Shown here: positions 37,487 to 37,590 of the stretch, piece after piece
How positions within the stretch are numbered: position 1 is the first letter of the stretch
Layout: every line of letters starts with the position of its first letter
Source: Escherichia coli
GTDB taxonomy: Bacteria; Pseudomonadota; Gammaproteobacteria; Enterobacterales; Enterobacteriaceae
Reading direction: 5' to 3' (one strand)
Assembly (NCBI RefSeq): GCF_003334385.1
Contig: NZ_QOWN01000020.1
Length of the DNA: 64,000 nucleotides
Notes under the pieces: generated by a model
What the model was told of the DNA's origin: nothing
The model's database searches: none
Seen by the model: the letters and a program-made list of their open reading frames with translations, nothing else
Translations under genes and position numbers: made by a program

Positions 37487-37590
37487 GCCGGATGCGGCGT
37501 AAACGCCTTATCCGGCCTACATGATCGTGCAAATTCAATAAATTGCAGCGTTCTGTAGGCTGGATAAGATGCGTCAGCATCGCATCCGGC
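37487..37590. repeat. Composite REP-IHF-REP (RIP/BIME-type) element
   Basis: Two inverted REP units flanking the AT-rich core ATTCAATAAATTGCA; the same core recurs at 53519-53533. Confidence 0.6.

Follow-up and report, generated by a model that had tools for sequence, protein, structure and literature searches.

Class 1 of the bacterial interspersed mosaic elements (BIME-1) is described by Ton-Hoang 2012 (PMC3333891) as a y and a z1 repetitive extragenic palindrome (REP) joined by a long, well-conserved L linker that frequently contains a site for integration host factor (IHF). IHF binding to the sequence between REPs has been published (PMC2817692). Two candidate elements of this kind were studied in a 64,000-nt stretch of an E. 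coli chromosome (contig NZ_QOWN01000020.1; hereafter the window) that corresponds to ~3.98–4.00 Mb of K-12 MG1655: element 1 in the spacer between aslB and aslA, and element 2 in the spacer between uvrD and yigE. The same elements also carry the names RIB and RIP; RIB is reportedly due to Boccard and Prentki (1993) and RIP to Oppenheim et al. (1993), and the name BIME-1 is said to belong to the Gilson/Bachellier classification. The family is already known (described 1991–1993), and both copies are unchanged in K-12: MG1655 carries them base-for-base at ~3,984,220–3,984,323 and ~4,000,150–4,000,252. No curated REP or RIP feature was found at these loci in the RefSeq MG1655 feature table examined.

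Both elements are best read, with a probability of about 0.85, as ~105-bp non-coding REP doublets of the enterobacterial L-linker type (BIME-1/RIP/RIB), acting in the general way set out below. The first-pass annotation had described each spacer as two inverted REPs around one AT-rich 15-mer. This 15-mer, ATTCAATAAATTGCA, occurred in two exact plus-strand copies in the window, at 37533–37547, as annotated, and at 53518–53532, 1 nt from the annotated 53519–53533. No further copy with two or fewer mismatches was present elsewhere in the 64-kb window (shuffle mean 0.27 matches), and by our own arithmetic the exact 15-mer would be expected to recur by chance ~1e-4 times in 64 kb. The annotated bounds of the two elements (37487–37590 and 53471–53573) coincided exactly with GCCGGATGCG...CGCATCCGGC. 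Each contained an inverted REP (iREP, ending ...CCTAC or CCTAA), a linker of 34 or 35 nt and a REP (GTAGG...), head-to-head, and each lay between convergent genes, aslB(+)/aslA(−) and uvrD(+)/yigE(−), past the stop codons of aslB and uvrD, which is the position of RIP/RIB elements. Each spacer held a single REP-L-REP unit and no tandem array, as in BIME-1, and the long linkers shared the blocks GCAAA/TTCAAT.. ATTG/CA with the rest of the family. The RIP/BIME-1 architecture proposed at first therefore stood as the order REP, L linker with IHF-type core, REP, but not as the strict y + z1 composition.

The core also recurred in other REP pairs across genomes, clearly contrary to the outcome that the first-pass annotation had named as refuting it (a 15-mer absent from other REP pairs). 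One genome per species (100,044 species) was scanned with the pattern CCTAC-N(8-18)-TTCAATNNATTG-N(5-15)-GTAGG, yielding at least 120 loci; all counts of family copies given here are among the matches listed. Enteric-type REP-linker-REP elements made up 113 of these 121 matches, and the remaining 8 were isolated chance matches in unrelated phyla. The family copies came from E. albertii (31), E. coli SCPM-O-B-8794 (19), E. coli E69 (11), E. whittamii (12), Pseudocitrobacter faecalis (16), a Pseudocitrobacter metagenome-assembled genome (MAG; 21), a Citrobacter MAG (1) and contigs labelled Desulfosporosinus and Bacteroides (2). The last two, a 262-bp contig of Desulfosporosinus sp. OT (L034) and a 6-kb contig of an uncultured Bacteroides MAG (L036), held textbook Escherichia-type Y-L-Z elements, most likely through enterobacterial contamination or mis-binning.

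The canonical unit consisted of a Y REP, AAAATCGTGCAAA TTCAATATATTG CAGAAAyCwT and then a short REP, GTAGGCCTGATAAGCGTAGCGCATCAGGCA. Among the matches listed, the linker was 35 nt long in 84/113 copies and 34 nt in 17/113; the left REP was Y-type in 104/113, the right REP CCTGAT-type in 94/113, and both held in 87/113. Several positions outside the fixed pattern were strongly conserved, i.e. an A-tract at −13 to −10, GCAAA at −5 to −1, A at +6 and CA at +12/+13. The family consensus core, ATTCAATATATTGCA, was carried by 61 of the 113 listed copies, with T where the window copies have A; the exact 15-mer of the window was a minority variant (12/113). This was the most variable core position (T69/A19/C14/G10 in the listed copies) and the sole departure of the window core from the consensus. 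Since it belongs to the NNNN spacer of the IHF consensus, the A-for-T change is not expected to affect recognition by IHF.

In 594 kb of Escherichia DNA around scan matches, 79 of 82 core occurrences lay inside REP pairs (73 intact framed and 6 degenerate); the 3 outside were at about chance level. A 43-nt canonical linker query matched all 5,426 complete E. coli genomes, with a median of at least 26 copies per genome (range 8–43), and was almost exclusively chromosomal, only 48 of the 150,169 places among the matches listed being on plasmids. One E. coli copy (L077:13300–13344) had a fully symmetric core, TTCAATATATTGAA, which matched the pattern on both strands and contained the IHF-type motif in both orientations.

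Element 1 and its neighbourhood comprised the following features.
37485–37592, no strand: element 1, whole REP-L-REP unit including outer arms (sequence reading and repeat finder)
37487–37520, minus strand: left REP, Y type, in iREP orientation on the plus strand, GCCGGATGCGGCGTAAACGCCTTATCCGGCCTAC
37521–37554, plus strand: L linker, 34 nt, ATGATCGTGCAAATTCAATAAATTGCAGCGTTCT
37533–37545, plus strand: IHF-type core ATTCAATAAATTG, 12/13 to WATCAANNNNTTR
37555–37590, plus strand: right REP, long CCGGAT/CTGGAT-type, GTAGGCTGGATAAGATGCGTCAGCATCGCATCCGGC, in the position of the short CCTGAT REP of canonical copies
36216–37451, plus strand: aslB, convergent with aslA (start inferred from the 1236-nt K-12 annotation)
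37619–39274, minus strand: aslA
37454–37476, minus strand: terminator-like hairpin and T-run on the aslA strand, overlapping the aslB stop, downstream of element 1

Element 2 and its neighbourhood comprised the following.
53470–53574, no strand: element 2, whole REP-L-REP unit including outer arms (sequence reading and repeat finder)
53471–53504, minus strand: left REP, degenerate CCGGAT-type, in iREP orientation, GCCGGATGCGGTGCTGCGCACCTTATTTGGCCTAA
53505–53539, plus strand: L linker, 35 nt, AAAATCATTCAGATTCAATAAATTGCAACGTCAT, with the family A-tract kept
53518–53530, plus strand: IHF-type core ATTCAATAAATTG
53540–53573, plus strand: right REP, Y type, GTAGGCCGGATAGGGCGTTTACGCCGCATCCGGC, in the position usually held by the short CCTGAT REP
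51304–53466, plus strand: uvrD, convergent with yigE (start inferred from the 2163-nt K-12 annotation)
53613–54377, minus strand: yigE

Both units were bounded by perfect 12-nt inverted arms detected with a repeat finder: TTGCCGGATGCG and CGCATCCGGCAA at 37485–37496 and 37581–37592 for element 1, TGCCGGATGCGG and CCGCATCCGGCA at 53470–53481 and 53563–53574 for element 2. The left REP of element 1 began 35 nt past the aslB stop codon and was of the type found in 104 of the 113 listed left REPs; that of element 2 began only 4 nt past the uvrD stop codon, and its head, CTAA, was one base off CTAC, where the E. whittamii orthologue retains CCTAC. The decay of this REP in E. coli (53480–53501) led from TTATCCGG/TTATACGG, the E. 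whittamii state, to TTATTTGG. It left a GC stem (GGTGC-TGC-GCACC) with a T-rich tail 14 nt past the uvrD stop, which a terminator scan flagged as terminator-like.

In composition both copies belong to an atypical and rare subtype of the L-bearing BIMEs. Their right linker arm measured 9 nt (CAGCGTTCT and CAACGTCAT) against the usual 10 nt, and CCGGAT-type REPs on both sides were seen in only ~6 of 112 elements among the matches listed, mostly orthologues of these two loci. With REPs of that type on both sides, left and right pair almost perfectly and the elements become near-perfect long palindromes. A swap of the Y and Z sides between the two copies was considered and rejected, since in the family the linker polarity was fixed relative to the Y REP; each copy merely has an unusual REP in one position. 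Three solitary REPs, none with an L linker, were also present in the window: a short CCTGAT-type at 10184–10213, a single REP of the long GATGCGTCAGCATC subtype (that of the right REP of element 1) at ~15962–15995, and a Y-like REP without GTAG at ~61725–61755.

The linker centre is an IHF-type site, ATTCAAnnnnTTG. In the window copies the core, ATTCAA-TAAA-TTG, agreed with WATCAANNNNTTR at 12 of 13 positions, and in element 1 the dyad centre (37536–37539) lay inside the core. At the DNA level, following the literature, IHF would bind the linker at the dyad centre, bend the DNA sharply and join the two REP arms; as the core straddles the dyad, an IHF-induced bend would fold the arms together. 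At the RNA level, read-through from either gene might produce a very stable 3′ hairpin that blocks 3′–5′ exonucleases or attenuates transcription. Occupancy of these two atypical copies by IHF is probable. A literature search for IHF together with aslA or yigE returned only a paper on the glmZ promoter, which is irrelevant to these spacers.

Several observations weigh against the assignment to BIME-1 with an IHF-bound centre. Neither element had the y + z1 composition, CCGGAT-type REPs standing on both sides (the short CCTGAT REP was equated with z1 by inference, being the majority partner of the L linker in the family). A scan of the window with the strict WATCAANNNNTTR consensus gave 2 matches elsewhere and none at the cores; strict matches were no more numerous than chance, and the motif alone is therefore no evidence for IHF binding. 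The upstream A-tract was lost in element 1 (ATGA instead of AAAA). The scan pattern itself fixed TTCAAT..ATTG, so the conservation of those ten bases was set by the pattern. Finally, only 2,260 (42%, element 1) and 3,012 (56%, element 2) of the 5,426 E. coli genomes had the element intact, a distribution that speaks against any important role for the host at these loci.

The same figures bear on a second explanation, i.e. that the elements are nothing but selfish or neutral REPIN relics, decaying passengers of the REP-associated tyrosine transposase without host function, in which the linker is kept by descent or for the sake of the element's own mobility (e.g. with IHF as a transposition host factor). 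We regard it as a real possibility at rather less than even odds. The intact fractions of 42% and 56%, the degenerate left REP of element 2 (CTAA head, TTATTTGG) and a linker hairpin without compensatory change all fit it, as does frequent loss with structural polymorphism at both loci (collapsed hairpins, lone REPs and deletions from the GTAG head). At least four structural aslB/aslA alleles were present in E. coli. Besides the intact allele there were three coverage classes, for each of which one or two representatives were inspected (L122–L125; window equivalent 37452–37618). The ST2747 allele was collapsed to a perfect single hairpin, GCCGGATGCGTCAGCATCGCATCCGGC, apparently by deletion between GATGCG repeats. 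In strain 5283 a single Y REP was left, and its right flank, of the E69 type, marks it as a remnant of the flipped allele (see below) inside E. coli. In AW1.7 and RM10466 the Y REP and L linker were kept and a deletion from the GTAG head took out the right REP together with most of aslA, which is now annotated as a pseudogene; this class made up roughly 30% of E. coli genomes, as judged from evenly spaced result rows. At the other locus, ~44% of E. coli genomes (including ATCC 11775 and E2348/69) had a 903-nt gene of the SAM hydrolase/SAM hydroxide adenosyltransferase family between uvrD and yigE. In spacers of this type (L126–L129; window equivalent 53467–53612) the uvrD-proximal repeat was a short perfect outer-arm hairpin, e.g. 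GCCGGATGCGGTGCGCCACACCGCATCCGGC, and REP-L-REP was absent.

What speaks against mere relics is that orthologous sites in different Escherichia species still carry the elements, that the A-tract and flanking bases of the linker are strongly conserved from genus to genus, and that IHF binding to inter-REP sequence is on record (PMC2817692). As to their origin, the elements most likely began as passengers, similar to REPINs, of the REP-associated Y1 transposase. With about half of E. coli genomes lacking each in intact form, they are tolerated rather than required. Roles in mRNA 3′-end stabilisation or nucleoid organisation, with which the first-pass annotation had found their position consistent, would be putative ones, and about half of E. 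coli genomes have lost or rearranged each element.

Orthologous loci were identified by BLAST with the flanks only: aslB/aslA in E. coli E69, E. whittamii and E. albertii, and uvrD/yigE in E. whittamii. Element 2 was collinear with its E. whittamii orthologue. In all three aslB/aslA orthologues the interior of element 1 (37497–37580, ~85 bp REP-linker-REP) stood as the reverse complement of that in the window and K-12 (comparison loci L100:7588–7805, L119:4509–4720 and L024:9232–9430), and the 12-nt outer arms and both flanks were unchanged. Among the matches listed, 26 orthologous pairs had the same orientation and 5 were inverted, 3 of these 5 being aslB/aslA. A second flipped orthologous pair, L025 (E. 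albertii) and L078 (E. coli SCPM), had less clean junctions; the inverted pair L005/L068 was rejected as a flip, since its two members belong to different genera, their junctions do not match, and separate insertions are the most likely cause. In the 5,426 E. coli genomes the native orientation of element 1 was the only one at full length, and a synthetic flipped query reached at best 92% identity, against 100% for the native one (coverage is uninformative for such a quasi-palindrome). We tentatively suggest that L-bearing REP doublets may flip in place, genuinely and recurrently, through their terminal inverted arms or a REP transposase, though at present we would sooner bet against it. No description of in-place inversion was found in the accessible literature, which is weak evidence of absence. 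If true, a flip in situ would turn the asymmetric IHF site round and exchange the REPs that face the two genes.

A third explanation places the action mainly at the RNA level, with a transcribed hairpin as a 3′-untranslated-region (3′-UTR) stabiliser or attenuator, or with a small RNA (sRNA) like ES036, and with the IHF-like motif incidental; we consider it doubtful as the main account. In its favour, the minimum-free-energy structure of both elements on both strands was one long hairpin with the left REP paired to the right REP. Predicted energies were −65.1 (plus) and −59.7 (minus) kcal/mol for element 1 (z ~−9.6) and −52.2 (plus) and −44.9 (minus) kcal/mol for element 2 (z −6.6 and −5.1). 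They were the most stable of 112 family members among the matches listed, the canonical mean being −40.7 kcal/mol. Transcription of many annotated REPs has also been reported (PMC4550694), and a minus-strand terminator-like hairpin (37476–37454) lies beyond element 1, so that an aslA transcript would include the element. This hairpin arose from a 9-nt indel relative to K-12 (37450–37476; aaaaaaGCGGCCAttttgTGGCCGCc against agaaa-tcggcGGCCGCc). It was absent from K-12 and E. whittamii, and E. albertii lacked the entire segment. In the same region the window was near-identical to K-12 but mosaic, with mismatches clustered at 36000–37499 (aslB) and 38250–41250 and none at 37500–38249; the first divergence tract ends at the left edge of element 1, where a recombination boundary at the repeat is possible.

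Rfam, too, curates the linker and REP head as an sRNA family. At gathering score no Rfam family matched either element. With a relaxed threshold the Y REPs matched naRNA4 (RF02564, REP325-derived RNA) and the linkers matched RF02751, the sRNA ES036 (CssrF), whose consensus, AAAuUUGUGCAAAUUCAAUAAAUUGCAGGAaAUACGUAGGCCU, amounts to the L linker plus a CCTGAT REP head and contains the exact 15-mer of the window. Element 1 scored 30.0 bits, with model positions 7–28 identical at 22/22 (37527–37548), and element 2 gave a weak full-length match of 19.5 bits (53506–53547). Both fall short of the 37.6-bit gathering score, because the right-hand linker arm and REP head differ, and this counts against an ES036-like sRNA here. 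Canonical copies with the AA variant (L029, L058, L061, L068 and L120) passed it with 43–57 bits. Since canonical repeats pass, ES036 matches are dispersed repeat copies and not orthologues of one sRNA gene; ES036 is effectively a model of the BIME-1 linker. Sub-threshold matches to microRNA families (e.g. mir-944) were disregarded, as they merely reflect the long hairpin. Also against the RNA-level account, no co-variation was detected in the family for the linker stem (UGCAA/UUGCA), with 90 paired against 90.1 expected and 84 against 82.4, which indicates that the linker is conserved as sequence rather than as a fold and agrees more readily with a protein site or common descent than with a selected RNA structure.

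Bidirectional intrinsic terminators for the two convergent gene pairs are improbable. The GC-rich palindromes do stand directly past stop codons, and the inner stem of the element 2 left REP with TTATTT was flagged terminator-like on the plus strand (a weak tail), but no U-run followed the main hairpin of either element on either strand, the sole clean terminator-like site near element 1 was the separate hairpin at 37454–37476, and the terminator scan found no more than shuffles (1 against 0.6 expected). That two unrelated REP pairs share ATTCAATAAATTGCA by chance, for which only the AT-richness of the 15-mer speaks, has next to no probability and was rejected by the family scan, the core recurring in >100 REP pairs with 96% of its occurrences inside REP pairs.

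The relic and RNA-level accounts are largely compatible with the L-linker BIME assignment and do not exclude it. Two points are mildly new: both copies are of an unusual subtype, and the aslB/aslA copy appears to have been flipped in place during Escherichia evolution. For annotation, the repeat class was correctly recognisable from raw sequence by a reader, and ES036 matches should be taken for copies of the repeat, not for sRNA genes in their own right. Both spacers were hotspots of structural change (flip, collapse, deletion into aslA and alternative gene content), which is relevant to intergenic typing and to 3′-UTR variation of uvrD or aslA.

Compared with described systems, the window elements come closest to BIME-1. 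They share with it head-to-head REPs across a ~35-nt L linker with an IHF-type core, one copy per locus, an extragenic position at the 3′ ends of transcription units, and a linker identical to the family consensus at ~27 of 35 positions in each copy (our own count). They differ in having CCGGAT-type REPs on both sides where canonical copies pair Y with a short CCTGAT REP (87/113 among the matches listed), a 9-nt and not a 10-nt right linker arm, and A rather than T at the variable core position. Like REPINs (Bertels and Rainey; mobilised by RAYT/TnpA-REP), they are inverted REPs <130 bp apart that fold as one hairpin, lie on the chromosome outside genes and persist vertically at orthologous sites. 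The spacer of a REPIN is described as varying widely; in the family studied here it is the best conserved part and the one that defines the element. RF02751 ES036 has the L linker and CCTGAT REP head as its consensus, and the window copies score below its gathering threshold while canonical copies score above it.

The IHF site H′ of lambda attP has an A-tract, ~8 bp, a WATCAA-type hexamer, NNNN and TTG followed by CA. The family linker follows the same layout (AAAA-TCGTGCAA-ATTCAA-TATA-TTG-CA), but the second position of its hexamer is T and not A, the A-tract is lost in element 1, and the window site is embedded in a palindrome and is not a recombination site. BIME-2 (Y + Z2 REPs with a short S linker, in tandem arrays, a gyrase target) belongs to the same REP superfamily and is likewise extragenic; it has no L linker or IHF core, is tandemly iterated and has other REP and protein partners, whereas each of the window elements has a long L-type linker and stands as one unit per locus.

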